Positions 3,394 through 35,500 of a stretch of 64,000 nucleotides of DNA are shown piece by piece. Within the stretch, counting starts at the first letter, position 1, and every line of letters starts with the position of its first letter. A model generated the notes under the pieces. That model was not told where the DNA came from. It did not search any database and saw nothing but the letters and a program-made list of their open reading frames with translations. A program made the translations under genes and the position numbers. This DNA comes from an uncultured Clostridia bacterium (GTDB lineage: Bacteria > Bacillota > Clostridia > Christensenellales > CAG-917), in contig CANQNQ010000004.1 of assembly GCA_947625225.1 (NCBI GenBank), positions 443 to 64,442 on the forward strand, in the 5' to 3' direction.

Positions 3394-3418
3394 AAAAACT
3401 CAATACAGGTTGCAAAAA
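3394..3418 (+). repeat. CAATACAGGT-core interspersed motif (exact core 3401-3410)
   Basis: AAAAACT CAATACAGGT TGCAAAAA sits between the two terminators of the gap/kinase convergent gap. Confidence 0.8.
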
Positions 3419-3444
3419 CGGCGACAATTCGTCGCCGTTTTTGT
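3412..3444. terminator. Bidirectional intrinsic terminator (serves the kinase operon on the minus strand)
   Basis: AAAAACGGCGAC AATT GTCGCCGTTTTT: a perfect 9-bp GC stem flanked by an A-run and a T-run. Confidence 0.8.
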
Positions 3445-3473
3445 TCTCTCATGCGTCAAGAGCGTTCCGTCTC

Positions 3474-4559
3474 TCAATCCGCCAAAAACGATATCTTGCC
3501 GTACACCGCTATGCTCAAAAAGTCTATCATCCACACAAACGGGAACAGCGCCATACACAAAAGCCCAAACATCAGCGTCGCCAGGTTGCGCGTCTCAAAC
3601 CACCTGACAATGCGATACAGCGACGCCATAAGCCACCCGAAAAGCAGCTCCACCAGCAACTTCTGCCACAGCTTAAGCGCATTGAAGCCCGTCGTCAGCG
3701 ACTTTTTGGATGTGTCGTCTATGTCCGGCTCTACAGGCAACGTCACGTAAAATGTGCTGCCCTTGCCCAACTTGCTGTGCACGGATATGTTTCCGCCGTG
3801 ATCAAGCACAATTTCCTTTGTTATATACAGTCCCAGCCCGCTGCTCTTGCTGTCCGTCCTTGCCTTGTCCGACCTGAAATATTGGTCAAACACATATGGC
3901 AGGTCCTCCTTGGCGATACCGTCGCCGTGATCCTTTACGGATATAACATACTTTTTTGCCCAAAGGCGGCAGCTTACCGTCACGGTACTGCCCGCGGGCG
4001 AGTACTTGATGGCGTTGGTGACGAGGTTTTGCATGACTCTTCCAAACTGTTTGCTGTCCAGCCGCAGCCTTGCGTCCTCGATTTTTCCAAGTTTTACGGT
4101 TATATTTTTGCTGTCCGCAAATTGCTGCAGGCGGCGCGTCACCTCCGAAAAGTACACGCGTCCGCTCTGTATCGTCTTGCCGCTCGCCTGTTCCTCCAGC
4201 GCCTTGCGCGAGGACGACACCATCTCCAGCACCATATCGTTCATCTGTTGCGTGCGCTGAAGTATCAGCGAGGCGTAGTCCTTATCGTCCATGCCGTCGC
4301 TCAGGCACTCCGCATAGCCCGCGATGACAGCAAGCGGCGTTTTCATGTCGTGCGCGACGGACGCGATGGCGTTGTTGGCGCGCTTTGTTGTGTCCAGCTG
4401 TTCGTCCTGCATTTTGAGCATAGTGAGGCGCAGCTTTTCAAGCCGCTTGCATATCGAGCGGTATACGCCCACGCCCTCGATCTTGAAAGGCACGGCAAGG
4501 TTGCCTTCCTGCAACCTTGTAAGCCCTGCCTCTATTCTGGACATCCTGGATTTCAACAT
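3474..4559 (-). CDS. Sensor histidine kinase with a cytoplasmic N-terminal core and a C-terminal double-TM anchor
   Basis: H-box SVAHDMKTPLAVI, N-box MQNLVTNAIKYS, and G-boxes DHGDGI / GLGLYITKEIV. The last ~70 aa form two hydrophobic helices (LWQKLLVELLFGWLMASLY, LATLMFGLLCMALFPFVWMIDFLSIAVYG). Confidence 0.85.
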   Translation of the reverse strand: MLKSRMSRIEAGLTRLQEGNLAVPFKIEGVGVYRSICKRLEKLRLTMLKMQDEQLDTTKRANNAIASVAHDMKTPLAVIAGYAECLSDGMDDKDYASLILQRTQQMNDMVLEMVSSSRKALEEQASGKTIQSGRVYFSEVTRRLQQFADSKNITVKLGKIEDARLRLDSKQFGRVMQNLVTNAIKYSPAGSTVTVSCRLWAKKYVISVKDHGDGIAKEDLPYVFDQYFRSDKARTDSKSSGLGLYITKEIVLDHGGNISVHSKLGKGSTFYVTLPVEPDIDDTSKKSLTTGFNALKLWQKLLVELLFGWLMASLYRIVRWFETRNLATLMFGLLCMALFPFVWMIDFLSIAVYGKISFLAD

Positions 4560-4569
4560 ATTATCCTAT

Positions 4570-4622
4570 ATTTTGCCACTCATATTGCAAATTTTGCAAT
4601 ACAGGTCATCATTTTGCCACTC
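4570..4622 (+). repeat. CAATACAGGT-core motif (exact core 4597-4606) within three ATTTTGC words phased at 20-21 bp
   Basis: ATTTTGCC at 4570, ATTTTGCA at 4591 and ATTTTGCC at 4611. ATTTTGCCACTC occurs twice. It lies in the 61-bp gap between the regulator stop and the kinase start. Confidence 0.8.
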
Positions 4623-5298
4623 AATCCTGCCACTTGTAGCCAAGGCCCCACACGGTGACAACGTTGTTGACGCCAACCTTTGCAAGCTTCTCCCTGAGCC
4701 TTGTGATAGTCACGGCGACGGTGTTTTCGTCTATATATTCCGCGACGCCCCACACCTCGTCGATGAGTTTCTGCTTGGGGATTATCTGGTTTTCATTGAG
4801 AGTAAGGTAGTCAAGCATCTTGAACTCCTTGGCAGTGAGGGCGATGGGTTTGTCGTCCACCTTTGCCTCGAAGCGGTTGGAGCATATCATCAGCCTGCCA
4901 TAGTAGCGGTCGCCCGCCGTCTGTCTGGTGTTGAGGTCGTAGTAGCGCCTGAGCTGCGCGTTGACCCTCATCACCATCTCCTTGAAGGAAAACGGTTTCG
5001 TTATGTAGTCGTCGGCGCCCAACGCGAACATCCTTTCCTTGTCCTCCTCGGCTACCTTTGCGGACACCACTATGACGGGTATCGTCATCGTTTGACGCAA
5101 GGTCTCGCACACCTCGTAGCCGTCTATGACGGGCATCATGATGTCCAGAAGCACCAGATCCGGGCGCATGTTTTTGGCGATATCCAGCGCCTGCGCGCCG
5201 TCGTACGCCTGATACACCGTGTGCCCCGCCTTTATAAGGTAGTTGCGCATCATGTCGGAAATTTCGAGATTGTCCTCAGCGATAAGAATTTTCCTCAT
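4621..5298 (-). CDS. OmpR/PhoB-family response regulator
   Basis: ORF trimmed to MRKILIAEDN, preceded by GGAGAAAGG. It has a receiver domain (DLVLLDIMMP) and a winged-helix C-terminus (LTAKEFKMLDYL...VWG...TVAVTITRLREKL). Confidence 0.93.
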   Translation of the reverse strand: MRKILIAEDNLEISDMMRNYLIKAGHTVYQAYDGAQALDIAKNMRPDLVLLDIMMPVIDGYEVCETLRQTMTIPVIVVSAKVAEEDKERMFALGADDYITKPFSFKEMVMRVNAQLRRYYDLNTRQTAGDRYYGRLMICSNRFEAKVDDKPIALTAKEFKMLDYLTLNENQIIPKQKLIDEVWGVAEYIDENTVAVTITRLREKLAKVGVNNVVTVWGLGYKWQD

Positions 5299-5368
5299 AG
5301 TCCTTTCTCCGTTTACAAATTGCATTCTTTTTGTGCCGTCATGCGTCAAATTTCACGTCTTAAGTGCA

Positions 5369-6271
5369 TTATACTACATTATCTTGATTTACACCACATA
5401 TTTTTTGCGCTTCGGCGATTTTTTTATCCGCGTTTTCAAAGTAGCGGATATACGCCTTTTTGCAATACTTTGCGTGCTTATTGGGCTGGGGAGCGCCGTC
5501 GTAGTCCATATTGTAGTTGCCGTTTATCCTCCACCCGTTTAGCATGGCTATATTGAACGCGTCCGTCGGGCATCCGAAGGAGCAGCGCGTACACATCAGA
5601 CACTTGCCGCCAAAGGAGAATTTGCCGTCCTCGCCGATATGGATATTGCCCATAGGGCACACGCGCTGACACTTGCCGCAATGTATGCACTTGTCCGCGT
5701 CCACCCTGAACATTCTGCCGTTTACGCGCATTGCGGGATGCTCTATGCGGAACAGCCAGGCGATGGCGTGCCCGAACGCCACTCTTTCAAGCAGATGGCT
5801 CTTTCCCGCGAGGACCTCTCTCGCCTCGATGGGGGCAAGCGCCTTTGCGGTGCGCCACATATGCGTCGCCACGTCGTCGGTGTGACGGAAGATCATGTTG
5901 TAGGGCATGACGTAGTGGTACTCGCTTTGAAGCTCGTATCCCTTGCGCTTCAATATGCCGTTCATCTTAAGCGACGAGATGTTGTTCAGTTTTATCGGTT
6001 CCCCCGACGATTTCAGCACAAAATAGCGCTTTTTCTCAACACAGGGTAACATTTTGGCAAGATCCAGCATTATGTGCGGGGCGTTGAATCCGTGTATGGG
6101 ATACGCAAACCCCACAAGGTCGAAGTCGTTTGGATCGGGCAGATCTTCCAGCGCGCCCCTCACGTCGTACAGTGTGGTCGCGACGCCGTTTGCCTCAAAC
6201 TCATCCTTATACAGCGAGCAAATGCGCCTTGTGTTGCCCGTCCCCGAAAATACGTAAATGATCGCGTTCAT
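5369..6271 (-). CDS. EFR1-family ferredoxin (flavodoxin-like domain plus 2x[4Fe-4S])
   Basis: N-terminal IYVFSGTGNT, and two CxxCxxCxxxCP motifs (CIHCGKCQRVCP, CLMCTRCSFGCP). RBS GAGGT is present. Confidence 0.75.
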   Translation of the reverse strand: MNAIIYVFSGTGNTRRICSLYKDEFEANGVATTLYDVRGALEDLPDPNDFDLVGFAYPIHGFNAPHIMLDLAKMLPCVEKKRYFVLKSSGEPIKLNNISSLKMNGILKRKGYELQSEYHYVMPYNMIFRHTDDVATHMWRTAKALAPIEAREVLAGKSHLLERVAFGHAIAWLFRIEHPAMRVNGRMFRVDADKCIHCGKCQRVCPMGNIHIGEDGKFSFGGKCLMCTRCSFGCPTDAFNIAMLNGWRINGNYNMDYDGAPQPNKHAKYCKKAYIRYFENADKKIAEAQKICGVNQDNVV

Positions 6272-6279
6272 ATTTTACC

Positions 6280-7851: not shown

Positions 7852-7993
7852 ATTTTGCCTCCTGTCGCTTTTGCTTTTACACCTACATTTTGACACGCCC
7901 ATCTTACGACGTTATGACCAAATGCTTACAATTTTCTTACATTTTCGGCGTCGGAAGGCAAAATATTTGTATATTTATTTTGATTTCATATAT

Positions 7994-8041
7994 AAAAAAC
8001 TCAATACATATACACAAAAGTTGCACCTGTATTGAGTTTTT
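7994..8041. repeat. Inverted pair of the CAATACAGGT motif (exact core 8025-8034 on the minus strand; degenerate CAATACATAT at 8002-8011)
   Basis: AAAAACTCAATACA (7995-8008) and TGTATTGAGTTTTT (8028-8041) are reverse complements. They lie just downstream of the cobB stop on the minus strand and so could act as its terminator. Confidence 0.75.
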
Positions 8042-8074
8042 GACGTTTTTGGATATAATTTTGCCTCGCGTCGC

Positions 8075-8839
8075 TCAGTTCAGATCTATGCCAAGTTCAC
8101 CCGCTATCTGCTGCGCGACGGCGGCGCAATCGCTGTTGATCACGATATCCGCCTCGCCGTCAAAGGAGGTCGCGCTTTTGTTCACCACCGCCGTTACGGC
8201 GCTGTCCGCGCAGTATGCCACCAGCCCTGCCGCAGGATAGACGTTGAGAGATGTGCCTATAACAATAAACAGGTCCGCCCTGCTTACCGCCCTGACCGCG
8301 CCCGCCAAAGTACGCTCGTCCAGCGTCTCGCCGTACAGCACCACGTCGGGCTTTATCACCCCGCCGCACTTCTCGCAGGTGGGTATCCCCTTGCCCTTCG
8401 CCACATAGTCGAGGTCGTAGAAGGTATGACAGGACGTGCAGTAGTTGCGTGCGCACGCGCCGTGCAGCTCGTACACCTTTTTGTTGCCCGCAAGCGTGTG
8501 CAGGGAGTCAATATTTTGCGTGACCACCGCGCCCAGCTTGCCCATCTGCTCCAGCTTTGCCAGCAACAGATGCGCCGCGTTGGGCTTGGCGTCGGGATAG
8601 AGCATCTTCTCCCTGTAAAAGTCGTAAAATTTCTTTGTGTGCTCAAAGAAAAATTCGTGCGACAGCATCACCTCCGCGGGGAAGGCGCCGATGTGCGTGG
8701 TATACAGCCCTTCCGCGCTTCTGAAATCGGGTATTCCGCTGGGCACGGATATGCCCGCGCCCGTCAATACAACTATGTTTTTTGCAACCTGTATTGCGTT
8801 TTTAAGCCTTTCGACCTGTTCATCAGTTTGATATTCCAT
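8075..8839 (-). CDS. cobB: NAD-dependent protein deacylase (sirtuin)
   Basis: GAGISVPSGIPDFRS, TQNIDSLH, and a Zn ribbon CTSC...CEKCGG. RBS GAGGGGG is present. Confidence 0.92.
   Translation of the reverse strand: MEYQTDEQVERLKNAIQVAKNIVVLTGAGISVPSGIPDFRSAEGLYTTHIGAFPAEVMLSHEFFFEHTKKFYDFYREKMLYPDAKPNAAHLLLAKLEQMGKLGAVVTQNIDSLHTLAGNKKVYELHGACARNYCTSCHTFYDLDYVAKGKGIPTCEKCGGVIKPDVVLYGETLDERTLAGAVRAVSRADLFIVIGTSLNVYPAAGLVAYCADSAVTAVVNKSATSFDGEADIVINSDCAAVAQQIAGELGIDLN
8778..8803 (-). repeat. CAATACAGGT-core motif inside the cobB CDS (exact core 8787-8796)
   Basis: The minus strand reads AAAAACGCAATACAGGTTGCAAAAAA, encoding KNAIQVAKN. Confidence 0.75.
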
Positions 8840-8994: not shown

Positions 8995-10179
8995 ATGCTC
9001 AATCAAGATATGTTGCGTTTGGGGGCACATCAGTCCGCCATAAGAAAGATAAGCGAGATAGGCAAACGCCGCGCCGCGACATACGGCAAGGACAGCGTTT
9101 TCGATTTTTCCATAGGAGATCCGCAGGCGCCCGTGCCCGCCGACGTAAAGGCCGCGCTTGCCGCCGCCATATCCTCCCCCGACAAGGAGGGAGTACACGG
9201 CTACACATCCGAGCCGGGCGTCGAAAGCGTGAGGCGCGCGATTGCGCAGGACGTAAACAGAATCTACGGAACGGCCGCGCAGGCAAAGCACATCTACATG
9301 ACCTGCGGAGCCGCCGCGGGGCTTGCCATATCCCTCAAAGCCGTGTGCAACGCGGGCGATGAGGTCATACTGATCGCGCCCTACTTCCCGGAATACGCCA
9401 TATATACGATCGCCGCGGACGCCACGCCAAAGCCGGTGCGTTGCGCGCAGGATTTTACCCTCGACATCGCTGCCATCGGCGCGGCAATAACCCAAAATAC
9501 CAAGGCGATAGTGCTCAACTCCCCCAACAATCCCTCGGGCGCGGTGTATCCCGCGCAGCAGATATCCGCGCTTGCCGCGCTGCTGTCGGACGCGTCCCGA
9601 AAATTGGGACATCACATATACGTCATCACGGACGAGCCGTACAGGGAGCTGACCTACGACGGCAAAATGCCACCCTCGCCGTTTGGCGTATACGACGATA
9701 CGATACTGTGCTACAGCTTTTCAAAGTCGCTGTCCCTGCCCGGCGAACGCATAGGTTACATCGCCATAAGCCCCACCATATCGGACGGTGACGACGCCTA
9801 CGCCGCCATTGACGGAGCGGCAAGAGCGCTTGGTTACATCTGCGCGCCCTCCCTCTTCCAAAGGGCGCTGGAGAGCTGCCTGCCCGTAAAGACGGACCTG
9901 GATTTTTACGCCGAAAACAGAAAGCTGATATACGGCGCGCTGACCGCTCTGGGATTTGAGTGCGCGCCGCCAAACGGAGCGTTCTACCTGTTTATCAAGT
10001 CCCCCGAACAAAATGCGGAGGCATTTTGTACCCGCGCTGCGGAAAAAGGAATACTGTTGGTGCCGGGCGACGAATTCGACTGCCCCGGCTACGCCCGCCT
10101 CGCCTACTGCGTAGATCGCGAAATTTTGGCAAAAAGCATACCTGTATTCGAAAAATTGCGAGATTTGTACTTCAATTGA
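8995..10179 (+). CDS. Class I/II pyridoxal-phosphate-dependent aminotransferase (aspartate aminotransferase-like)
   Basis: ORF trimmed to MLNQDMLRLG after GAGGTG. It contains the PLP-lysine motif SFSKSLSLPGERIGY and NPSG. Confidence 0.88.
   Translation: MLNQDMLRLGAHQSAIRKISEIGKRRAATYGKDSVFDFSIGDPQAPVPADVKAALAAAISSPDKEGVHGYTSEPGVESVRRAIAQDVNRIYGTAAQAKHIYMTCGAAAGLAISLKAVCNAGDEVILIAPYFPEYAIYTIAADATPKPVRCAQDFTLDIAAIGAAITQNTKAIVLNSPNNPSGAVYPAQQISALAALLSDASRKLGHHIYVITDEPYRELTYDGKMPPSPFGVYDDTILCYSFSKSLSLPGERIGYIAISPTISDGDDAYAAIDGAARALGYICAPSLFQRALESCLPVKTDLDFYAENRKLIYGALTALGFECAPPNGAFYLFIKSPEQNAEAFCTRAAEKGILLVPGDEFDCPGYARLAYCVDREILAKSIPVFEKLRDLYFN
10128..10158 (-). repeat. CAATACAGGT-type motif, one core mismatch (ACCTGTATTC 10140-10149), inside the aminotransferase CDS
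   Basis: GGCAAAAAGCAT ACCTGTATTC GAAAAATTG keeps both AT-tract flanks and encodes AKSIPVFEKL. Confidence 0.6.
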
Positions 10180-10194
10180 CCTTAAGTTTGGCAC

Positions 10195-12341: not shown

Positions 12342-12881
12342 ATGCAGTCCTCGTCCTTGGATTTCAATCAGACCTTCGACAGCAAGGTACAAAAATTGGT
12401 CATCCTCTTCGTGTTTGAGAAGATGGCTATTCCGCTTACGGAGGAAACGGTGCTGGATATATGCACCTCCGACAACAAGTGGCTGGGATATATGGAGTGC
12501 AAGCAGTACCTCAACGAGCTTATCGACACCAACCTGCTGTACAACGTGCATAAAAGCGCTCTTATAGGCATCACGCAGGACGGCGTAAGCTGCCTTGGCA
12601 TGTTCTACACTCACATCCCCTCCTCTTTGCGCGAGGAGATAGCGCTGTATGTGGGCGAAAACCGCATGCGCTTCAAAAAAAAGCAGTCGTACTTTTGCGA
12701 CTACTTCAAAAATGCGGACGGCACCTACACCGTCATCATGCGCATAAACACCGAATCGTCTACGCTGATGGAGCTTAAACTTATCGTCACAAGCCGTCAG
12801 CACGCCAAATATCTGGACAAAGTATGGGTGGAAAAGGCGTCCACCATATATACGTCCATCCACGAAAACCTGTTTGAGTGA
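12342..12881 (+). CDS. DUF4364-family protein (function unknown)
   Basis: ORF trimmed to MQSSSLDFNQ. It is 179 aa with KLVILFVFEKMAIPLTEE..., recalled as the Clostridial DUF4364 pattern. A TTGAAT-17-TATTAT promoter candidate lies upstream. Confidence 0.5.
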   Translation: MQSSSLDFNQTFDSKVQKLVILFVFEKMAIPLTEETVLDICTSDNKWLGYMECKQYLNELIDTNLLYNVHKSALIGITQDGVSCLGMFYTHIPSSLREEIALYVGENRMRFKKKQSYFCDYFKNADGTYTVIMRINTESSTLMELKLIVTSRQHAKYLDKVWVEKASTIYTSIHENLFE

Positions 12882-13452: not shown

Positions 13453-14724
13453 TTACGTCACTTTTTTTGCTTCGCCGCCTATAAAACGCCGCCTCGCTTC
13501 ACGTGCGATCTTATCCACCGCGTCCTGCAAATTTCCATTGTTTTCCACATACAGGTCTGCATTTTGCCTATAAATCGGCTCTCTTTGGCCGAGCAACTGT
13601 CGCACGCTGTCGATGTCCTTGGACAGCGGTCTGCCGTCTGTGGAAAGCAGCTCGGCTTCTCGCGCTAAGCGCACCACAAAACCCGTTGCGCGCATAAAAT
13701 ACGCATTTTTCGCGGAAGTTACCGCGCCGCCGCCGACGGCTATGACGCTGCCGTTTCCGCGACAGACTTCCTCTACAACTTCGCTCTCCAGCCTTCTGAA
13801 CTCCCCTTCGCCGTCGATCGCGAATATATCGGGGATGGTCCTGCCCGTCCGCTTGCAGATCTCATCGTCCGTATCTGCAAACTTCATGTCAAGCGCCTCC
13901 GCCAGCGCCCTGCCTACGCTGCTTTTGCCAGCGCCCGCCATGCCAATAAGCACGATATTGCTGCGGCTTCCCTCTATACGCTCGGCTATATCCACGCTGA
14001 CCCGGGGCGGGACAAGTTCTCCGCCCTCCGCTTTTGCAAACAGATCGTGCGCCAGCCTGCCCTGCTCTACAAGCATAAGCATGCCGTTCGCAGCCCGCAC
14101 TCCCCTCCTAAGCGCGTTTTGAATGAGCAGCGTGCGGGTGGGATTGTATATGCAGTCGAACACGCCCTCCAGCCTCTCAAATCTGTTTAAGTCTATGGGG
14201 CAGGCGTACATATCGGGATACATGCCCACGGGCGTGGCGTTGATGACGACTTGCGTGCCGTCAAGTTCGTAACAATTTTCGTAGTTGATCTCTCCCATGC
14301 GCGACACGGTGTTGACGCTTGCCGCGCCCAGCTTTTTGCACACGAAATTTGCCGTATGCCCCGTGCCGCCGCTGCCCAAAATGAGCACATGCCTGCGGTT
14401 TATTTGTATTTTTGCATGCTCCAGCGCGCGTATCATGCCCGCGACGTCCGTATTGTATCCCTTAAGCTTTCCGCCCTCGTTGACTACGGTGTTTACCGCG
14501 CCCACCTCAGCCGCCTCGTCGTCCACAAAGTCCAACAGCGGCATGACGTCACGCTTGTATGGGATTGTAACGTTGAAGCCGCCGTACTCCCGCGCGGCGA
14601 CAAACTTGCCAAGCTCCTCAGCGCTTGCAAGCTCCCGCACGCAGTAGTCCTCATCGCCCAGCGCCGCGTGTATCTCCGGCGAGAGCGTGTGCGGCAGACT
14701 TTTGCCTATAACGCAATGTTTCAT
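13453..14724 (-). CDS. aroE/aroK: Bifunctional shikimate dehydrogenase / shikimate kinase fusion
   Basis: The N-terminal half (IGKSLPHTLSPEIH, GYNTD, LGSGGTG) is AroE-like. The C-terminal half (NIVLIGMAGAGKSSVGRALAE, DTDDEI) is AroK-like. Confidence 0.88.
   Translation of the reverse strand: MKHCVIGKSLPHTLSPEIHAALGDEDYCVRELASAEELGKFVAAREYGGFNVTIPYKRDVMPLLDFVDDEAAEVGAVNTVVNEGGKLKGYNTDVAGMIRALEHAKIQINRRHVLILGSGGTGHTANFVCKKLGAASVNTVSRMGEINYENCYELDGTQVVINATPVGMYPDMYACPIDLNRFERLEGVFDCIYNPTRTLLIQNALRRGVRAANGMLMLVEQGRLAHDLFAKAEGGELVPPRVSVDIAERIEGSRSNIVLIGMAGAGKSSVGRALAEALDMKFADTDDEICKRTGRTIPDIFAIDGEGEFRRLESEVVEEVCRGNGSVIAVGGGAVTSAKNAYFMRATGFVVRLAREAELLSTDGRPLSKDIDSVRQLLGQREPIYRQNADLYVENNGNLQDAVDKIAREARRRFIGGEAKKVT
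13541..13568 (+). repeat. CAATACAGGT-type motif, one core mismatch (ACATACAGGT 13547-13556), inside the aroE/K CDS
   Basis: CACATACAGGT CTGCA TTTTGCC has the same N5-TTTTGCC flank as the intergenic copies. It encodes QNADLYVEN on the minus strand. Confidence 0.65.
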
Positions 14725-15854: not shown

Positions 15855-15867
15855 ATGCACCCCTCAA

Positions 15868-15914
15868 ATTTTTCAATACATGTGCAAATTTTGCAATACA
15901 GGTTCGCATTTTGT
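15868..15914 (+). repeat. Tandem CAATACAGGT motif units (exact core 15894-15903; CAATACATGT 15874-15883) with 20-bp phasing
   Basis: ATTTTTC at 15868, ATTTTGC at 15888 and ATTTTGT at 15908. It fills the pheA/aroC intercistronic gap. Confidence 0.8.
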
Positions 15915-17012
15915 CTAAATAATTCCGTACTTCAACGCCTCGTCCGCAAGCGCCAGCGCGACCGCGCTCTCCACGCAAGGCACCGCTCGCGGCACGATGC
16001 ACGCGTCGTGACGTCCCGCAATCTCAAGCGAAGCGGGCGACATCGTGCGCAGGTCCACCGACTGCTGTCTTATGGCAATGGACGGCGTGGGCTTTATCGC
16101 TACGCGAAGTGTGAGGGGCATTCCGTTTGCTATGCCGCCGTTTATGCCGCCGCTGTTGTTGGTGGTCGTCCTCACCTTTCCGTCCCTTACTTCAAACGCG
16201 TCGTTTGCCTCGCTGCCGCACATCGTCGTGATGGCAAAACCTTTGCCGAACTCCACGCCCTTGACGGCGGGGACAGCAAATATGCTGTATGCCAGTTTGC
16301 TTTCCAGCCCCTCGAACAGCGCGTCGCCCATGCTGCCCGCTTTTACTCCCAACGCCACGCACTCTATTGTGCCGCCGACGCTGTCGCCGCGCGCCTTTGC
16401 GCTCTTTATTGCGATGGCAGCCGCTTCGCACTGCCCGTCCAAGGTGGGAAATGCGTCCGCTTCTATGTCTATATGCGCTATAAATTTGTCAAAAACAGTC
16501 TCGTCTTGCATGCCGTCGTAGCTTGCAAGCCGCACGTCGTTTACGGAGGAAATGTACGCGCCTATCCTTATCCCACGCGAGCGGAGCAGTTCCTTGGCGA
16601 TGCCGCCCGCAATGCATAGCGGCGCGGTCATTCTGCCCGAAAATCTGCCTCCGCCGGGGGCAATGCTACCGTCGCGGCAATACGCGGCATAGTCCGCGTG
16701 CGATGGGCGCGGGACGGTGAGATCGTAGTCGGCAGATCGCACGTCGCGGTTGAGTATCTCCGCTACAATATCGCCCGTCACGACATACTCATCGCCCACC
16801 TTTTCAAGCCCTTCGACAAAACGCGGCAAGTCCTCCTCGGCGCGAGCGGTAGACCATATCCCCGCGCCGCCCTTGCGCCTGAGCAACATATTTTGCACAT
16901 CGCCAAGCGTCAGCCTTGTCCCGACGGGGACGCCGCCCAGCCTCAGCCCGATCTTGTCGGCGTGGGAGCTGCCGAATATCTCCACATTCAATTTTTCAAA
17001 ATTTGCTTTCAT
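15915..17012 (-). CDS. aroC: Chorismate synthase
   Basis: ORF trimmed to MKANFEKLNVEIFGSSH. It contains RPSHADY and GRHDACIVPRAVP. Confidence 0.92.
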   Translation of the reverse strand: MKANFEKLNVEIFGSSHADKIGLRLGGVPVGTRLTLGDVQNMLLRRKGGAGIWSTARAEEDLPRFVEGLEKVGDEYVVTGDIVAEILNRDVRSADYDLTVPRPSHADYAAYCRDGSIAPGGGRFSGRMTAPLCIAGGIAKELLRSRGIRIGAYISSVNDVRLASYDGMQDETVFDKFIAHIDIEADAFPTLDGQCEAAAIAIKSAKARGDSVGGTIECVALGVKAGSMGDALFEGLESKLAYSIFAVPAVKGVEFGKGFAITTMCGSEANDAFEVRDGKVRTTTNNSGGINGGIANGMPLTLRVAIKPTPSIAIRQQSVDLRTMSPASLEIAGRHDACIVPRAVPCVESAVALALADEALKYGII

Positions 17013-17070
17013 ATATTTTGCCCTTACGGATGATTTTCGTATTTTCCACGCCATATCGCTGTTTTATGTG

Positions 17071-17100
17071 AAAAACTACAATACAGGTGGCACTTTTGCC
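17071..17100 (+). repeat. CAATACAGGT-core motif (exact core 17079-17088), aroC/aroA gap
   Basis: AAAAACTA CAATACAGGT GGCAC TTTTGCC. Confidence 0.8.
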
Positions 17101-17101
17101 A

Positions 17102-18325
17102 TCAGTCGCGCTCGATGTCCGCGCCCACAGACCTCAGATCCTCAAAGAAATTCGGATAGGATTTGCCCACGCAATCCGCGCCATCAAGGGTACAGCCGCC
17201 AAGTTTCAAGCCGATCAGCGCGGCGCTCATCGCCATGCGGTGATCCCCGTATGAAACAAAGTTTGCGCTGTGCGGGTCTCCGCCGAATATGACGAGTCTG
17301 TCGCCATCTACCTGTGTTGAGATGTCGCAGCGCGACAGCATATCCACCACCGCGGCAAGCCTGTCGCTCTCCTTATCCCTCAAGCGCGATACGCCGTAAA
17401 CAGTTGATTTTCCCTTCGCAAACGCCAACGCCGCGCTGAGCGCGGGCACAAGGTCGGGGCAGTCTTTCGCGTCAAACTCGATGGGATCAAGCTCGCCTTG
17501 CACACAGCCCACTCCGTCCTTGCTATAAACTTTTGCACCAGCCGATTTGAGCAGTTCGACTACAACTTTGTCGCCCTGAACGGAGCGCATGTTTACGTTG
17601 TCCACGCGCACGTCGCCCATCAGCGCGCCCGCGATAAGCATAGCCGCCGCTGACGACCAATCCCCCTCAAGCATATCAGCATCAGGCGCAACATAGCGCT
17701 GTTTTGACGGCAAAAAATAACCTGTATTGAGTTTTTTTACCATAATTCCGCTGTTTTTCAACATGTCGAGAGTCAAATCCACATACCCCTGCGACACTGT
17801 TTTGCCCACAAGATGTATCTCGCTGTCCTCGCCAAGCAGTGGCAGCGCCATCAACATCCCGGATATAAATTGCGAGCTGACGTCCGCGGGCACCTTGAAA
17901 ACGCCGCCGCTCAACCTTCCTCGCACCTCAAGCGGCAACCAGCCGTCTGCGGGCGCGGTTATCTGCGCGCCATGCGCGTTGAGCGCGTCAATAAGCTCCT
18001 TCATAGGCCGCTTTGCCAGCCTACCCTCGCCCTCAAACGTGACTTTTGCGCCAAGCGCCGCCGCGATGGGCAACAAAAACCTCAATGTGGAACCGCTTTC
18101 GCCAACATTCAACGTTTTATGCGCGCTTTTGTCGCGCGCGATATTTTCGCTCAACTGCTCCAGACAACGCGCAGTAGCCGACACGTCCTTGTTTATATAT
18201 GGAAGTTCGGCGGGCTGCCCTGCAAGCGCCGAGGCTATCAAAAATCTGTGCGCCACCGATTTTGAGTACGGCACGCGCACGCTGCCCCGCAGCACGGATC
18301 TCTCAAGCCTCATGACCTCGCCCAT
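17102..18325 (-). CDS. aroA: 3-phosphoshikimate 1-carboxyvinyltransferase (EPSP synthase)
   Basis: VPYSKSVAHRFLI, LNVGESGSTLRFL and YGDHRMAMS. RBS AGGGAG is present. Confidence 0.93.
   Translation of the reverse strand: MGEVMRLERSVLRGSVRVPYSKSVAHRFLIASALAGQPAELPYINKDVSATARCLEQLSENIARDKSAHKTLNVGESGSTLRFLLPIAAALGAKVTFEGEGRLAKRPMKELIDALNAHGAQITAPADGWLPLEVRGRLSGGVFKVPADVSSQFISGMLMALPLLGEDSEIHLVGKTVSQGYVDLTLDMLKNSGIMVKKLNTGYFLPSKQRYVAPDADMLEGDWSSAAAMLIAGALMGDVRVDNVNMRSVQGDKVVVELLKSAGAKVYSKDGVGCVQGELDPIEFDAKDCPDLVPALSAALAFAKGKSTVYGVSRLRDKESDRLAAVVDMLSRCDISTQVDGDRLVIFGGDPHSANFVSYGDHRMAMSAALIGLKLGGCTLDGADCVGKSYPNFFEDLRSVGADIERD
17709..17738 (-). repeat. CAATACAGGT-core motif inside the aroA CDS (exact core 17720-17729)
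   Basis: The plus strand reads GGCAAAAAATA ACCTGTATTG AGTTTTTTT. It encodes KKLNTGYF in aroA. Confidence 0.75.
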
Positions 18326-18345
18326 AGTAAAACTCCCTTATTTTA

Positions 18346-18376
18346 CAAAAATTTATACCTGTATCGCGTTTTTCGG
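18346..18376 (-). repeat. CAATACAGGT-type motif, one mismatch (ACCTGTATCG 18357-18366), aroA/aroB gap
   Basis: CAAAAATTTAT ACCTGTATCG CGTTTTTCGG. Confidence 0.65.
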
Positions 18377-22546: not shown

Positions 22547-22729
22547 CGCTGTTCAGGAGGTCGAGAAGGTTGCCATGCAAAAAAAATTGCGGGCAAAATT
22601 CTTTCCCAGTCTGACTTTACAGGCGGTTGCGGGATCTCACCGCATCGGCTGTTGGGGCTGTTGGACTTGTTCGCTCAAGGCGACATTACCACCGGTTGGG
22701 TACACCCGATCCAAAGAATCGTATTTTGT
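22547..22729 (-). promoter_or_regulatory. Structured leader, riboswitch-like (class unresolved; weak resemblance to the cobalamin riboswitch core)
   Basis: The minus strand contains GAUGCGGUGAGAUCCCGCAACCGCCUGUAAAGUCAGAC. Compare the cobalamin riboswitch P4/L4 GGGUGAGAAUCCCGC, ..CCGCUACUGU.. and the B12-box AGYCAGGAGAC. The usual GGGAA is missing. An anti-SD CCUCCU is also present. Confidence 0.3.
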
Positions 22730-25677: not shown

Positions 25678-25744
25678 ATCACAAATTTGTCAAAAGGCGG
25701 CGCATGCCGCCTTTTATTTTTGCGCATATGTATGCTATTTCAAA

Positions 25745-25776
25745 AGAAATTTGCAATACAGGTGCAACTTTTGCCC
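25745..25776 (+). repeat. CAATACAGGT-core motif (exact core 25754-25763)
   Basis: AGAAATTTG CAATACAGGT GCAAC TTTTGCCC. The 22-nt run CAATACAGGTGCAACTTTTG is identical to the minus strand of the copy at 8013-8034. Confidence 0.8.
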
Positions 25777-25824: not shown

Positions 25825-26880
25825 GTGAAAAAGTCGTTGAGGACCGCCTTTTTATACATAGGTACGGCGATAGGCGCGGGCTTTTCGTCCGGCAAGGAAA
25901 TAGCGCTTTTCTTTGGCAAGGCGTCTCCGCTGAACGTCGCGCTTACATCTGTATTTATGGCGCTGTTGTGCGGGCTTTTTCTTGTTGCGGGCAAGCAGAA
26001 TATGATGCCCAAAAGCAGGCTGATGCGCTTTGGCATATTTTTGTCGGCATGCATATCTCTATGTTCCATGCTGGCGGGCGGAGAGTATGTGATGCGCACG
26101 CTCAGCGGCATACCTCTGTTGGGTCTTGTCATGGCAATACTCGGCGCAATCGTCGTCATTTTGGGTATAGAAAAGATGAAAGCGGCCAACTGCGTGCTTG
26201 TGCCTCTCATCGTGCTGTCCATTGCGCTGATATTTTTCAAGCTGCCGCACCTGCGCGGCGAGCTACCATTTGACATCGCGCGCCCCATGATATACAGCGG
26301 ACTGGACGTGTTGCTGGGCGGGGTGATAATCGCGGACGAGGGCAAAAAGCTCAACTATCGGCAGATATTTGGCACCTGTATGCTGATTTTCGCGTTTTTG
26401 TTTGGGATGTTGTTCATGTTGCAGACGGTCGTGCTGGCGGACGGATGCGTCTCGTCGATGCCCGTGCTGGCGGTTGCAAAGCGCTTCGGCTTGCAGGCGA
26501 TATGCGGAGTGCTGATAGCGGCGGCCATATTCACCACGCTAATATCCTCCCTCAAGATAGTGTCCGACAGTCTGCTGGCTTTTTTGAGGCACACAAAGAG
26601 GCTATCCTCCTTCGGCGACGTCAAAAACACGCCATTCGCGGTGTTCCTCTGCCTGCTGATCGCATATCCCGTCAGCTTTGTGGGCTTTGACAACATAGTC
26701 AATACGATGTACCCCTTCATCAGCGTATGCGGCATATTGATGACCGCGATCGTGCTGGTCAGGTTCTGCATAAAGGCGGTTTTGTTGATAAAGCGACGCA
26801 GATCTTATAGTTCCTCTCCCCCGCGCGCAAAAAAGAGGTATAAAAAAAGCAAGGCGACACGCCCTGCGATTTCCGTATAG
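25825..26880 (+). CDS. YkvI-family polytopic membrane protein
   Basis: IGTAIGAGFSSGKEIALFF near the N-terminus and about 10 TM helices. The start is uncertain: I chose the in-frame GTG at 25825 (VKKSLRTAF), and the upstream part of ORF 25687.. overlaps the repeat motif. Confidence 0.6.
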   Translation: MKKSLRTAFLYIGTAIGAGFSSGKEIALFFGKASPLNVALTSVFMALLCGLFLVAGKQNMMPKSRLMRFGIFLSACISLCSMLAGGEYVMRTLSGIPLLGLVMAILGAIVVILGIEKMKAANCVLVPLIVLSIALIFFKLPHLRGELPFDIARPMIYSGLDVLLGGVIIADEGKKLNYRQIFGTCMLIFAFLFGMLFMLQTVVLADGCVSSMPVLAVAKRFGLQAICGVLIAAAIFTTLISSLKIVSDSLLAFLRHTKRLSSFGDVKNTPFAVFLCLLIAYPVSFVGFDNIVNTMYPFISVCGILMTAIVLVRFCIKAVLLIKRRRSYSSSPPRAKKRYKKSKATRPAISV

Positions 26881-26885: not shown

Positions 26886-27551
26886 TCACTCTCCGTCATG
26901 GCAGTCGCAATGCTCGTGCTGGCAATCGTCGTGATGACAGTCGCAATCGTCGCACTCGTCCTCGTCGTCCTCGTACGCGCCCAATTCGTCGTCGACGTCG
27001 CCCAGCTCGTCCTCTGAATCGTCCTCGAACTCTTCGCTTTCTCGGCGCGGTCTGAACAAGTCCTCAAACGGTGAGCGGCGGCTGTCCTCCTCAGGCTCGT
27101 CAAGCCCCTTGAGGTAGCGGTACAGCGGGTCGTCCGTGAAGTCCTGCTTGAGGTCGAAATCCCCGCCCAGCTCCTCGACGGCGTTGCGGATCTCCATATA
27201 CTCGTTGTAGTTCGGTTCGTACTCGTCGCAGAATGTTTTTAGCACCTGTATGCCGTTTTCGTCGCCGTAGCTGCCAATCAGGCGCGCAAACAACGCGACG
27301 TCCTCGCCCTTATAGAGGTAGCTGACCAGTCCCATAAAAATAGCTTTGTTGCCCTTGTAGCCCGCCAGCACTTCCATCAGCATCTTGCCCGTTTCGCCCT
27401 CAAGCGAATAGAGCTTGGCAAGCATATCGTCCACTATCTCCTCGCAGTCCTCAAGCAAAAACTCGTACGCTTCCAGCCGCTTGTTGTAGTCGACGTCCTC
27501 GTCCAGCATGACGTCAAGCATTTTAAGCATATTTTCCCTGTTTTTAATCAT
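26886..27551 (-). CDS. Acidic protein with C-terminal Cys/His-rich tail (function unknown)
   Basis: ORF trimmed to MIKNRENMLKML. Its ATG overlaps the stop of the upstream TPR gene (ATGATTAA). The C-terminus is DDEDECDDCDCHHDDCQHEHCDCHDGE. Confidence 0.7.
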   Translation of the reverse strand: MIKNRENMLKMLDVMLDEDVDYNKRLEAYEFLLEDCEEIVDDMLAKLYSLEGETGKMLMEVLAGYKGNKAIFMGLVSYLYKGEDVALFARLIGSYGDENGIQVLKTFCDEYEPNYNEYMEIRNAVEELGGDFDLKQDFTDDPLYRYLKGLDEPEEDSRRSPFEDLFRPRRESEEFEDDSEDELGDVDDELGAYEDDEDECDDCDCHHDDCQHEHCDCHDGE

Positions 27552-30423: not shown

Positions 30424-30578
30424 TGCGACTCCTTTTAAGCCGATATATGCTTATTATAAAGATTATACATTATAAATCCGCAAAGCGCAAACAAATCACA
30501 AAAATATTTGCCGCCGAATATAAATACCCTAGAAAACTGCTGTGCGGCGGGACGTCGCGCGGCATGGGAGGCGACAGC

Positions 30579-31598: not shown

Positions 31599-32457
31599 GG
31601 GTACAATAACTGCGCTTATGACCCCGTTTTGTGCAGATGGGGTGGATATTTCCGCGCTGGAGCGGCTTATAGACCGCCAGCTTGAGGCGGGCGTAAACGC
31701 GCTTGTCGTGTTGGGCACCACGGGCGAGCCCGCCACAATGACTGCCGCCGAAAAGCAGAGCGTGATACGCTGCGCCGTGGCGCGCTGCAAGGGAGAGATA
31801 CCCGTCATAGTGGGCGCGGGCAGCAACAGCACCGTGGGCGCTATAGACAACTGCGCGATGGCGAGGCGGCTGGGCGCGGACGGAGCGCTGATAGTCACGC
31901 CGTACTACAACAAATGCACTCAGCGCGGGCTTATTGAGCACTACGGCGCGATAGCGGCGACCACCGACCTGCCCATAATTTGCTACAACGTCCCCTCGCG
32001 CACGGGCGTGAATATGCTGCCATCCACCTGCGCGGAGCTGGCAAAACTGCCAAATGTCGTCGGTTTTAAGGAGGCGAGCGGCAATGTGGAGCAAATCGAG
32101 GAATGTATCCGCCTTGTGGGCGACAAGGTGTACAGCGGCGACGACGCGCTGACCGTCCCGCTGATGGCGATGGGCGCAAGCGGCGTGATAAGCGTCGTGA
32201 GCAACATCCTGCCCCGCTGCACCGTGCGCATGACGGACGCGGCGCTGCGCGGCGATATTGCCGAGGCACGCGCAAGGCAGCTGAAACTGTTGCCGCTTAT
32301 AAAGGCGCTGTTTTGCGAGGTGAATCCCATCCCCGTCAAAAAGGCGGCGGAGCATATGGGCTTATGTTCGGGCGCGGTGAGGCTGCCGCTTACCCCGCTG
32401 AGTCGCGAAAATGCCGAGAAACTGCGTGAAATTTTGGACGAATACGAGGACGCATAG
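31591..32457 (+). CDS. dapA: 4-hydroxy-tetrahydrodipicolinate synthase
   Basis: MFKGTITALMTPF, VLGTTGEPATM, YNVPSRTG and FKEASGN. It overlaps the asd stop by 8 nt. Confidence 0.95.
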   Translation: MFKGTITALMTPFCADGVDISALERLIDRQLEAGVNALVVLGTTGEPATMTAAEKQSVIRCAVARCKGEIPVIVGAGSNSTVGAIDNCAMARRLGADGALIVTPYYNKCTQRGLIEHYGAIAATTDLPIICYNVPSRTGVNMLPSTCAELAKLPNVVGFKEASGNVEQIEECIRLVGDKVYSGDDALTVPLMAMGASGVISVVSNILPRCTVRMTDAALRGDIAEARARQLKLLPLIKALFCEVNPIPVKKAAEHMGLCSGAVRLPLTPLSRENAEKLREILDEYEDA

Positions 32458-32461
32458 CGGC

Positions 32462-32487
32462 AAAAAACTCAATACAGGTAGCAAAAA
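32462..32487 (+). repeat. CAATACAGGT-core motif (exact core 32470-32479) abutting a terminator
   Basis: AAAAAACT CAATACAGGT AGCAAAAA. The 17-nt AAAAACTCAATACAGGT is also present at 3394 and, on the minus strand, at 17736-17720 and 8041-8025. Confidence 0.8.
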
Positions 32488-32509
32488 GCCCGCCTGACGG
32501 CGGGCTTTT
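32483..32509. terminator. Bidirectional intrinsic terminator (dapA / giant LRR gene)
   Basis: AAAAA GCCCGCC TGAC GGCGGGC TTTT. Confidence 0.85.
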
Positions 32510-32525
32510 GAGTTGTGATACGATA

Positions 32526-35500
32526 TCAGCCTTTGGCGCCGGGATCCGCAATTTCGATGGCGGGATTCATTGCGTCGGGCAATGAGGTGCATCCGCTGAA
32601 CGAGTTGTGCGCAACTTTTGCGATGTCAAAATCGTTGAAGTTGGTGGTGGCAAGATTGACGCAGCCCATAAACGCAGAGTCGCCAATGCTTGTCAAATTG
32701 GTGGTCTTATCACCGGATTCTTGCACCGTGACGGAAGTCAGATTGGTCTGACCCCTGAACGCATACTCGCCGATCGCGGTCACTTTGAACTCGATTTCAT
32801 CTCCCGCCTTGATGACGGTCGCGGGGATCACCACGTTGGTGAGGTAGGAGCTTTGGCGCACCACCGTTGCGGTGTGATTTTCAAGGTCAAGCGCGAAGCG
32901 CATCTTGACGATCTGCTCGCCCTCTACAAGCGCTCTGCCCGCAGCCTCGATCGTGCCGTCCGCTTTGGCTATATACTCCGCCACATAGTAGTAGTTGCCA
33001 TCCGTTGCTACGCCTTCTTTATCGCTGTAGACCACGGGCACGGTTTCCGCCTGCGGATACACGTCGTTGGCGCAGTCATCCCACATGTTGTTCCAGCCGG
33101 CGGGCGTTGCCGTCTCTATGAAGTCCACATAGACCGTAAGCGCATAGCAGGTGGCAAACGCTCTGTTGCCTACATGGTCAATTTCCGATGACAGATGTAT
33201 CTCCAGCAAGCTGGTGCAGCGGGAGAACGCGGCGTCGCCTATATAATCCAAATTCTTCAATATGCCGTCGCCCACGCCGAACACATTGCCTACTTCGCCG
33301 ACGAAGATGTCCACAAGCGACTCGCAGCCGTTGAAGCAGCTGTCTTGGATGGACTTAAGCCCTGTGGGCAGCACGATCTGTTTGAGCGCGACGCACTCTC
33401 CAAACGTGGACGCGGCAAGGTCTGTGAGACGGCTGTTTTTGCTGAGGTCGATGGACGTGATGCCGCTCTGACCGAATGCGGACGGGCCAAGCAGAGCAAG
33501 GTTTGTGGACGAAGTGAGGTCCACGGACGTCAGGCTGCTGCATCTTGCAAACGCGCTGTTGCCGATGTCGGTGAGGGAGATGTTCAAGCGGCTGTACACT
33601 CTGGCGCGGTACTCGCTGGCGCTGTCGTACACGATAGCTCTGAATCTCTCCACATTTTCGGATATGCCGCCGTACTGCGGGATAGACTGCTGTTTGCCGT
33701 TCTTCATGAAATACGTGGAAGTCTGCAGATAGATGGAGCTGGGCAGGTACATATACACGTCGCCGTTGGTTGCGGGTTCGGGCATAACAATGCCATCCTT
33801 AAAGCCGACCACTCTGTAAATTACATCGTCAAACTCGTACTCGGACTCCAGCGTGAACACGTAGTGCGTTCTGCCGCTTTCCACAACGGCTTCATACGCC
33901 GTGGCGGGCACGCTGGTCACAATGGCTTCATATACGTCTTTGTCGTCGACTTTGCCCACCGCTTTATCGGAATATTGCTCAAAATTAGCCTTTTCCAGCT
34001 TGGTAACGTCCTTGCCTGTGGCGGTAGTCTCCTGCGCGGTGTAGACGTTTTTGAGATTGACGCAACCCGCAAACGTGAAGTTGCCGATGACCCTTATGTT
34101 GGAGCTGAGATAGACGGTCACCAGATTGGTCAGTCCCGCGAACACGCCCGTGGAAATGTCGCCGTTTTTCTCGCCTATCTGCGTGACGGTGTATGTCTTT
34201 CCGTCAATGGTGCAAGTCTTGGGGACGACCACCGTCCTGACCGTGGACGCCTGCGCAGTAAGCGAAGTCGCCGTTATCTTTGCGGTCTTTGCAACTTCGT
34301 CGAGGGGAACAAACGTGAACAGCGAAGGATCCTCCTGCAACACCACCGAGTATATTACCGAGAATTCAAGCCTCTTGGTCGCCTCGTTGAGGTTGTTGTA
34401 CACAAACTTCGCGCTGTAGAAGCCCAGCAGATCCGTGCTGAGCGCAGAGGCGCCGCGTCCGTTGACCTGCGTGAGGGAGAAGCCGTTGGTGTTGGTGAGG
34501 GCAAGTTGCTGCTCGCTGCCATCCTCCCTTATCATGATGACGCTGAGCCCGGACCTGAACGTGGTAGGATTGCCGTTGAGGGGCACGGAGAACGCTCTCC
34601 TCTGCTCCACTTTTTCATACTTGGGCACTCTGACCATGTAGGCAAAGCTTATCATATAAGTGCCTATGCCGTGGAAGTCGACCTCTATCGTTGCGGTCTT
34701 TGACCTGCCGCCGTTGTCGTCGGTGAAGCTGAGGCCGTCGATGTCGTTGAGGTCGATTGCAATTGAGTGCGTCTTGCCGCTGTAGTCTGAATAATTGAAT
34801 ACAGGTTTCAATTCGCCGGGATCGGAGGACGACCAGAACGTGGGAGTGCCCGAACCCAAAAGGTCGCCCGCGCTGTTTGTATCTCCTTCAAGACCGCTTA
34901 TCCAGAAAGGATATGATACGTTGCCGCCCGATGTCAGCAAATTGGATCTTACAGATTGATTGTTTTTGTTATATTCATTTGACGAATAGAACGATGTGGT
35001 GCCCTCTATCTTACGATAGTCGTACACTTCGATGAGGAATTTACCATCGCCCTCTACATCGCCCTCTACGTTCGTGTTAAATTCCTGTTCCTGATATACA
35101 AATTTCAGCGAGTAGACGCCGCCGAAGTCGTTGTCGCTCACTTTGACCATCTCAAGTTGGTTGCCCACCACGCTGAGAGGCTCGCGGCGCTCCACGCCCG
35201 CATTGCTCTTGACGATCAGCGCGTCCTCGATGACCGCCTCTTTACCGTACTTGTCGAGGAATGCGTTGCCGCCTTCATCGTCTGTGCCGCTCTCGCCCGT
35301 GCGCAACAGTTTTGGGGAGATCTTGGCGCTGTCTATACTGACGGACGCGAGTTTTTCCTCCACAAATCTGTCCTTGTTGAACAAGTACATGTTGTACCAG
35401 GCTTCCGTTACGGCGTCATCACCCGTTATCTTTGCACCGCCTTCGATGGCAGCGAATGCCTCCATGACCGATTTGCGGAAATAGAACTTCAGCTCGGCAT

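Follow-up and report, generated by a model that had tools for sequence, protein, structure and literature searches.

Why should one short, asymmetric DNA word recur many times within a limited part of a bacterial chromosome, on both strands and inside genes as well as between them? This question is raised by a 64-kb stretch of DNA from an uncultured Clostridia bacterium (64,000 nucleotides of contig CANQNQ010000004.1, the whole of which is referred to here as the window), in which the asymmetric 10-mer CAATACAGGT and its complement occur in nine exact copies when both strands are counted. The original prediction, made from these letters alone, favored a DNA uptake signal of the kind known from Neisseria and the Pasteurellaceae, and named a binding array for a nucleoid-associated or global regulator and a family of miniature repeats as alternatives. 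The reading that we favor, at a probability of about one half, is that selection has kept the copies as docking sites, at the boundaries of transcription units, for a DNA-bending or DNA-wrapping protein that is sequence-specific and restricted to one lineage. Such an array looks previously undescribed, and the literature on the core sequence, and on uptake or repeat elements in Christensenellaceae, yielded nothing relevant.

The Core Word and Its Census

The nine exact copies, all of which lie at the positions and on the strands originally predicted, are to be set against an expectation of 0.06 in dinucleotide shuffles and of 0.06–0.47 under Markov models of orders 1–5, and the claimed over-representation thus holds against a Markov background. 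Allowing up to one mismatch, the window contains 19 matches where 2.3 are expected. A 31-nt position-weight matrix finds 17 candidates, versus 0.15 in shuffles, and a wider, strand-agnostic matrix gives bimodal scores, with 15 copies at 22–38 and a background below 15. Two sites fall near or between these classes: the degenerate partner of an inverted pair at 8002 has a wide-matrix score of 14.5, and a borderline site at 34797 scores 18 (25 with the 31-nt matrix), above the background but short of the true copies. The window holds 15–16 genuine copies that are cleanly apart from background. The ten near copies that had been listed in addition to the exact ones fared unevenly. Six (6037, 10140, 13547, 15874, 18357, and 26374) have the expected flanks and wide scores of 22–36, two (17310 and 30017) lack flanks and resemble chance matches, and the one at 34797 is the borderline site just mentioned. 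The tenth, at 27244, is a coding coincidence, because the peptide that it encodes, GDENGIQVLKTF, is identical in relatives that have no motif. Partner half-sites at 8002 and 8765 were absent from that list.

Checks of strand bias and of the coding/intergenic ratio, both of which had been proposed, show 10 copies on the plus and 6 on the minus strand, without strand bias, and a strong preference for spacers: the non-coding 7% of the region holds 10/16 copies (P = 1.5 × 10−8), an intergenic enrichment of at least 7-fold. The remaining 6/16 lie inside coding sequences (CDSs), and the motif is consequently not strictly extragenic. With respect to the local mRNA, about half of the copies are in antisense orientation (4597, 6037, 13547, 15874, 15894, 17079, and 26374).

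A ~90-bp Element of Phased A/T Tracts

The core is the center of a much larger structure. A/T content peaks at −47, −37, −26, −14.5, −5, +3, +16, +26, and +37 around it, such that A/T tracts are phased every 10.5–11 bp from about −47 to +39, and the element measures ~90 bp. The ~30-nt consensus that had been proposed is therefore correct as far as it goes, but incomplete. Fourier power at the 10.5–11 bp period is 0.28 and 0.23 in the outer flanks, versus a maximum of 0.078 in 500 random sets, and the phasing is found separately in the window and in L190, a syntenic contig of a related lineage that is described below. The tracts themselves may be of either type: upstream there is an A-run in 14 copies and a T-run in 9, and downstream an A-run in 10 and a T-run in 14. 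The type even switches at a single orthologous site, the aroB|aroA spacer, which reads AAATTTTT in the window and TTAAAAAT in L190. As A-type and T-type tracts are interchangeable, it is DNA shape, rather than flank sequence, that is conserved. The conserved unit is an asymmetric 10-bp word within a ~90-bp duplex whose bendable stretches are in phase.

Core and flanks are asymmetric and non-palindromic, and single copies do not fold; only pairs do. The inverted pair at window 7993–8041, which had been noted from the start, folds at −20.1 kcal/mol (z = −5.2), and one in L190 (15433–15483) at −18.5 kcal/mol (z ~ −5), both with A and T runs at their edges. When Rfam covariance models were run against the window, no family overlapped any motif copy. 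The two matches, both away from the copies, are a flavin mononucleotide (FMN) riboswitch (22594–22723, minus strand), which precedes the gene for a riboflavin S-component of the energy-coupling factor (ECF) type, and a ribosomal L10 leader (53073–53200, minus strand), which precedes rplJ.

Conserved Positions and Origin by Substitution

Syntenic contigs were reached through AroA homologs, with AroA identities to the window of 97% for L193, 89% for L192, 58% for L190 and L191, 49% for L194, and 45% for L195; in an AroA protein scan of the genome collection, the best among the matches listed was 40% identical. An exact look-up of GAPDH matched nothing, one of the kinase led to a 3.9-kb contig inside the window, and PEPCK is so conserved that neither the window lineage nor that of L190 was among its homologs listed. 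L190 (48% G+C) carries ~10 motif copies in the 16 kb covered of its 39.9-kb contig, and 7–8 of these are found at the same position and in the same orientation as copies of the window, at 58% AroA identity and with spacers that are otherwise unalignable. The matched sites include those inside aroA, in the 3′ end of aroE/K, and inside a membrane-protein CDS. The stretch from aroB to the fumarase gene is copy-free in both. L194 and L195 (45–49% AroA identity) have the same gene order and zero motif copies.

The copy inside aroA is the most instructive with respect to origin. L190 and L193 have it, L192 has it in decayed form, and L194 and L195 lack it; against five homologs, the gene shows no insertion or deletion at this site. 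The copy therefore arose by substitution and not by insertion of a repeat of the REP (repetitive extragenic palindromic) or MITE (miniature inverted-repeat transposable element) kind. Lys and Asn codons form phased A-tracts over ~60 nt around it. The peptide at the site is LKNSGIMVKKLNTGYFLPSKQ in motif lineages and LAEFGISVETTETGYFVKGNQ in L194, and motif-less relatives have VETTETGYFVK. It follows from these comparisons that the element works at the level of DNA, is made by substitution, has been maintained over deep divergence, and is limited to one lineage, and that it is no mobile insertion.

L194, which lacks the motif, carries the word CGGTTTAYA five times in the same aro spacers (9906, 12397/12423, 12492, and 15551), including an inverted pair, and the flanks of one of these copies (AAAAACT-core-TGCGAAAAT) resemble those around the motif of the window. 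The word could be another ‘dialect’ of the core, a likeness too weak for a claim.

Distribution along the Chromosome and across Genomes

Clear copies span positions 3401–32470, or reach 34797 if the borderline copy is counted, at about one per 1–2 kb. The wide matrix finds none at 35–64 kb of the window, and the 8-mer ATACAGGT behaves likewise, with 15 occurrences within 3.4–34.8 kb and 0 at 35–64 kb. At the density of the cluster, the chance of a copy-free 33 kb is ~4 × 10−8. No copy was found in a second assembly of the same species that reaches 4.4 kb past the window (RF2, SecA), nor in 10.8 kb of a probable sister lineage, which is represented by two contigs, L231 and L232 (ComF-like gene, SecA, RF2, TsaD, S12, and S7). 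The samples that yielded L190 also yielded these two contigs, and their TsaD is 88% identical to that of the window; the common samples and the intermediate identity make it probable that both are of the L190 lineage. Positions 3–2097 of L231 carry a ComFC-like gene (DZR_2 and Pribosyltran domains), with a 421-aa gene before it, upstream of secA-prfB.

Farther afield, 185,579 species genomes were covered by two complete scans with 18-mers, in which the counts stayed near chance and no genome had more than three matches; 17-/18-mer scans of JGI metagenomes and viral contigs likewise gave near-chance matches, and none of these collections showed a dense locus. Several Christensenellales-like metagenome-assembled genomes (MAGs) have 1–3 exact occurrences each of AAAAAACTCAATACAGGT, with A-tract flanks and often just before a terminator, beside unrelated genes (obg, nrdD/trxB, murG, hslV, and thiD). 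The presence of this word in other Christensenellales-like MAGs indicates that it predates the dense array, and suggests a conserved factor whose site number expanded in the lineage of the window.

Placement Relative to Genes and Promoters

The window has a G+C content of ~55%, and its nearest named relatives are Clostridia or Christensenellales MAGs (TsaD identity 75–79%). Its motif-bearing half encodes glyceraldehyde-3-phosphate dehydrogenase (GAPDH), a two-component system, a ferredoxin-like protein, an epimerase, Sir2, an aminotransferase, phosphoenolpyruvate carboxykinase (PEPCK), an eight-gene aro operon, malic enzyme, a membrane protein, and asd-dapA, and its copy-free half KsgA, TatD, MetRS, CysK, rubrerythrin, ribosomal proteins, NusG, EF-Tu/G, TsaD, and RF2. 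A typical site lies 12–23 nt past a stop codon, as between response regulator and histidine kinase, between aroB and aroA, aroA and aroC, and aroC and pheA, and after dapA. Copies at 3401, 25754, and 32470 adjoin intrinsic terminators, in keeping with the terminator neighbors originally noted at the first and last of these, and those at 3401, 10140, and 32470 lie between convergent 3′ ends. The best predicted promoters, those of the aro operon (21493–21465), PEPCK (12126–12097), and the fumarase gene (24431–24403), have no motif copy; promoter and terminator calls are consensus matches only.

Which Mechanism Accounts for the Array?

An uptake signal of naturally competent Clostridia would be a word, CAATACAGGT with its A/T flanks, that a pilus or receptor prefers and that biased uptake and recombination spread. 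Much of the anatomy recalls the DNA uptake sequences (DUS) and uptake signal sequences (USS) of other bacteria, and to this extent the original interpretation stands: there is an asymmetric core of 10 bp (9–12 bp in DUS/USS) on both strands, far above the k-mer background, with intergenic enrichment, with helically phased A/T flanks like those of the Haemophilus USS, with CDS copies made by substitution at permissive positions, and with restriction to one lineage and very unequal density between related lineages. The inverted pairs fold like terminators (−20.1 and −18.5 kcal/mol; z ~ −5), as USS and DUS inverted pairs double as terminators (PMC1852404), and the spacing of ~1–2 kb in the cluster resembles the 1.1–1.5 kb of DUS (PMC2397512). 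A genome that uses DUS or USS, however, has hundreds to thousands of them, enriched throughout its core (PMC1852404, PMC2397512), and it is here that the interpretation breaks down. Dense, even coverage is lacking, with 16 copies in 31 kb and none in the next 33 kb, whose core genes (ribosomal proteins, EF-Tu/G, MetRS, TsaD, RF2, and SecA) are without even the 8-mer ATACAGGT. The original prediction had itself named confinement of the copies as a ground for its refutation, and they are confined to ~31 kb. The 10.8 kb of the probable sister lineage are likewise copy-free, a gap of the size seen in the window has a chance of only ~4 × 10−8, copy-free stretches are conserved between lineages, and no species genome among the 185,579 scanned has more than three exact 18-mers, let alone hundreds of copies. 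The phasing, moreover, is on both sides of the motif and extends to ~90 bp, unlike that of DUS/USS. The probable sister lineage does have a ComFC-like gene, and genes of the competence machinery therefore exist, but ComF genes are widespread among Firmicutes irrespective of any sequence specificity of uptake. An uptake signal is, on balance, quite unlikely.

Operators of a classical transcription factor, serving an aromatic amino-acid, lysine, or central-carbon regulon, would agree with the content of the cluster, which spans GAPDH, PEPCK, malic enzyme, the fumarase gene, the whole aro operon, asd-dapA, and the aminotransferase and leaves the housekeeping and translation half without a copy, and with the conservation of positions beside orthologous genes. 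Phased A/T tracts would also fit wrapping regulators, such as those of the Lrp/AsnC type. A promoter-proximal operator is nevertheless excluded by placement, since the best predicted promoters, named above, have no copy, whereas three copies lie between convergent 3′ ends (3401, 10140, and 32470) and several inside CDSs. The site is also asymmetric, without a dyad, and other MAGs have the same 17/18-mer beside unrelated genes (obg and the others named above). We regard this explanation as unlikely. Still less can be said for a selfish or mobile miniature repeat that gathers in spacers and 3′ ends, which we consider very unlikely. It would account for sites in intercistronic spacers and past stop codons with their at least 7-fold intergenic enrichment, for the tandem and inverted arrangements, and for the sharp differences in copy number between lineages. 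The unit, however, is non-palindromic and does not fold singly, 6/16 copies are in CDSs, there are no target-site duplications or terminal repeats, and the flanks vary between A- and T-tracts instead of being copied. Above all, the aroA copy is without an insertion against five homologs, and L190, with an AroA identity of only 58%, shares the positions and orientations of most of its copies with the window. An origin by substitution, together with this constancy of position, excludes a mobile repeat and contradicts that alternative of the original prediction. An RNA-level signal for processing, stability, or protein binding in 3′ untranslated regions (UTRs) or between cistrons is the least credible of all and verges on the implausible. 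Many copies are in transcribed spacers or 3′ UTRs, and those that adjoin terminators are in sense orientation (3401, 32470, and one after nrdD in the contig L030). Yet about half of the copies run against the direction of the local transcription unit, Rfam gives no match, phasing at 10.5 bp is a property of duplex DNA, and interchangeable A-/T-tract flanks would be meaningless for RNA. It is this mixed orientation, together with the interchangeable tracts, that excludes an RNA element.

A number of more specific candidates were also rejected. The motif is no promoter, as it has no usable −35/−10 geometry and half of the copies would drive antisense transcription. It is not known to match the consensus of the SigE/SigK −10 box or of the CodY, CcpA, WalR, LytTR, and ComK boxes. 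The core resembles RUACARGGAUGU, which we take to be the CsrA ligand obtained by in vitro selection (SELEX); a CsrA-like RNA site was rejected for the mixed orientation. The 16-bp parS palindrome TGTTNCACGTGAAACA has one match with three mismatches in the window, which is at chance level. Shufflon or invertase sites are at odds with the conserved synteny, and replication terminator (Ter) sites with orientations that do not fall into two opposed groups.

The Docking-Site Reading

The docking-site reading remains because uptake, mobile repeat, RNA element, and promoter operator each fail, and the phasing suggests it positively. It develops the alternative of a binding array for a nucleoid-associated or global regulator, which fits phasing, conserved positions, and clustering best: as in the site arrays of architectural proteins, there is a repeated motif in a limited region, at conserved positions, with a DNA shape that implies bending or wrapping. 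That a protein binds, which protein this is, and what its binding does for the cell are what we infer. Selection would keep the copies as DNA sites that act in cis, and their 10-bp core CAATACAGGT would be read by a protein monomer or by a complex that is itself asymmetric, around which about four helical turns of in-phase A/T tracts per side would pre-bend ~90 bp of DNA. Docking would take place at boundaries, that is, past stop codons, in intercistronic spacers, at terminators, and at convergent gene ends, and occasionally inside genes, and the dense array would cover one ~30-kb block of central-metabolism and amino-acid genes. The role of the protein would presumably be architectural, either as a local roadblock or insulator or in supercoiling or domain management of the metabolic block, and thereby distinct from promoter-proximal regulation and from DNA uptake.

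Several observations weigh against this reading. No protein encoded in the window is both specific to the motif lineages and plausibly DNA-binding. The sites of known chromosomal arrays (parS, matS, Noc, and SlmA) are palindromic and recognized by dimers, whereas this core is asymmetric. The ~100-fold gap in site density between related lineages is more typical of a self-propagating or drive element than of a regulon. Single sites can be lost in a close relative, as the aroA copy has decayed in L192, and further clusters or diffuse background copies may lie beyond the stretches scanned. As to the binder, the product of a lineage-specific gene was considered and rejected, the only gene here that is specific to the motif lineages being that of a multi-pass membrane protein. 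The DUF4364 protein (12342–12881) is encoded in the motif-less L195 as well, and its sequence has no relative in the PDB.

Established systems offer partial parallels. The REP elements and bacterial interspersed mosaic elements (BIMEs) of enterobacteria, which bind gyrase and integration host factor (IHF), are also found past stop codons, in spacers, and at operon ends, singly, in tandem, or inverted, and are believed to influence DNA topology or the ends of mRNAs by way of the proteins that they bind; the motif is comparable in this respect. REPs, however, are imperfect palindromes, strictly extragenic, and moved by RAYT transposases, whereas the motif is asymmetric, lies in CDSs without insertion, and keeps its positions across deep divergence. 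The IHF site (WATCAANNNNTTR with a flanking A-tract) likewise has an asymmetric core and an A-tract about one turn off, implies strong bending, and is often found in extragenic repeat contexts, and the motif, (A)CTCAA-TACA-GGT, has the TCAA part in common with it. In contrast to the IHF consensus, the motif has GGT for TTR and in many copies GCAA, and its phasing reaches much further. To our knowledge, Firmicutes are generally without IHF. Clusters of parS, matS, Noc and SlmA sites, and the ram sites of RacA are repeated in limited chromosomal regions, between and within genes, as the motif is, and each of these arrays is upheld by selection and has a structural protein of its own that reads it; the motif region is smaller and denser than matS or Noc domains, and the window has no parS-like sequence. 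A/T-rich DNA that is preferred by GapR or gyrase also occurs at gene 3′ ends and convergent junctions with a ~10.5-bp periodicity over ~100 bp, but the sequence specificity of these proteins is weak, unlike the near-invariant 10-bp core of the motif.

If a dedicated protein reads these sites, the array would represent a sequence-addressed DNA-wrapping system in Firmicutes, strong enough to have changed the coding of enzymes, AroA among them. Organized regionally, at the edges of genes, it could then explain operon-boundary, supercoiling, or domain management in uncultured gut Clostridia, as well as the ~100-fold expansion of one docking motif in one lineage. More tentatively, it is possible that the array is a hitherto undescribed chromosome element, in which an asymmetric core in ~90 bp of pre-bent DNA, also within coding sequence, marks a ~30-kb metabolic domain in a Christensenellales-related lineage and a wrapping protein acts as a nucleosome-like or topological insulator, or else that it is the first sequence-specific uptake or recombination signal of Firmicutes, with a regionally targeted drive. 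The case also carries a caution: a core, A/T flanks, terminator pairs, and substitution origin are insufficient for inferring uptake, and the distribution in the genome needs to be checked. The motif could serve as bait for its candidate binding protein, in pull-down experiments or in DNA affinity purification sequencing (DAP-seq).

Individual Copies

The first copy (3392–3422, core 3401–3410, plus strand) is flanked by the convergent genes for GAPDH and a histidine kinase; the A-tract on its 3′ side enters a bidirectional terminator (3419–3437; fold −22.9 kcal/mol). The second (4588–4618, core 4597–4606, plus strand) fills the 61-nt spacer from the response-regulator stop to the kinase start, antisense to the operon. 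The response regulator has 234 aa and, like PEPCK (~590 aa) and the DUF4364 protein (~179 aa), is shorter than its longest open reading frame (ORF). The third copy (6028–6058, core CAACACAGGG, plus strand) is inside the ferredoxin-like CDS, which is 300 aa long in an independent assembly; it has two mismatches, good flanks, and a wide score of 26. The inverted pair (7993–8043, both strands) consists of a partial copy at 8002–8011 (plus) and a full one at 8025–8034 (minus), and forms an A-run/hairpin/T-run after the Sir2 gene. A further minus-strand copy at 8787–8796, with a degenerate plus-strand partner at 8765–8774 (together 8765–8805), occupies the first ~20 codons of the Sir2 CDS, and the hairpin of this pair is not significant (z = −0.6). 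The copy at 10128–10158 (core GAATACAGGT, minus strand, wide score 36) falls in the last 15 codons of the aminotransferase CDS and, at the same time, in the 3′ region of the convergent PEPCK gene.

Within the aro operon, the copy at 13538–13568 (core ACATACAGGT, plus strand) is at the 3′ end of the shikimate dehydrogenase/kinase CDS, a position common to L190, and the residues at this copy (13547) are LYV in motif lineages versus VTV or III in motif-less relatives. A tandem pair with a 20-nt period (15865–15915, plus strand; cores 15874–15883, CAATACATGT, and 15894–15903) fills the spacer between the chorismate-synthase gene and pheA; it is kept in L192 and L193 and reduced to a single copy in L190. 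The copy at 17070–17100 (core 17079–17088, plus strand) is in the aroA|aroC spacer, 14 nt past the aroA stop. At its 5′ end, the longest aroC ORF has 14 codons (17013–17054) that precede the start in L192 and L193 (365 aa), and the true aroA|aroC spacer is therefore ~89 nt. The mid-aroA copy (17708–17738, core 17720–17729, minus strand) encodes VKKLNTGYFLP, and the copy in the aroB|aroA spacer (18345–18375, core CGATACAGGT, minus strand) has its position and orientation in common with L190, L192, and L193.

The copy at 25745–25775 (core 25754–25763, plus strand) lies 30 nt past the malic-enzyme terminator (25692–25715) and ~50 nt upstream of the GTG start (25825) of the membrane-protein gene, and L190 has a copy in the same spacer. 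That gene carries another copy within its CDS (26362–26392, core GCATACAGGT, minus strand, wide score 29), again at a position common to L190. The membrane protein (window 25825–26880, L190 1028–2179) is multi-pass, with a basic C-terminal tail, and is found at this position only in the two motif-bearing lineages, L194 and L195 having a HAD hydrolase and small genes there; its gene thus has motif copies both upstream and within. The copy at 32461–32491 (core 32470–32479, plus strand) is 13 nt past the dapA stop, and its 3′ A-tract enters the terminator between dapA and a convergent gene for a leucine-rich-repeat (LRR) protein. The latter, a BspA-type surface protein of 1936 aa (32526–38336, minus strand), directly follows this last good copy, and the doubtful copy at 34788–34818 (core GAATACAGGT, plus strand) is inside its CDS, with poor flanks.

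Other Repeats in the Window

A near-perfect palindrome of ~76 nt with the arms GGGGACGGAGCAAAAATGTTAA occurs three times in the window (530–605, 744–815, and 38642–38717), folds as a single strand at −21.7 to −26.5 kcal/mol (z −7 to −10), and is absent from 304 loci searched. Its outer copies bracket the CAATACAGGT cluster, possibly by coincidence. The first adjoins a perfect TTGACA-17-TATAAT promoter (540 to 512, minus strand), and the center of the third is TGTTA-N7-TAACA, which we take to resemble a GlnR/TnrA box. A stretch of ~790 nt (507–1293) is without a convincing ORF, and within it a 23-nt tandem repeat with the consensus TCTTTTTCGGCTATGTTATTCCT (6.5 copies, 1129–1278) follows a strong terminator at 1088–1117.

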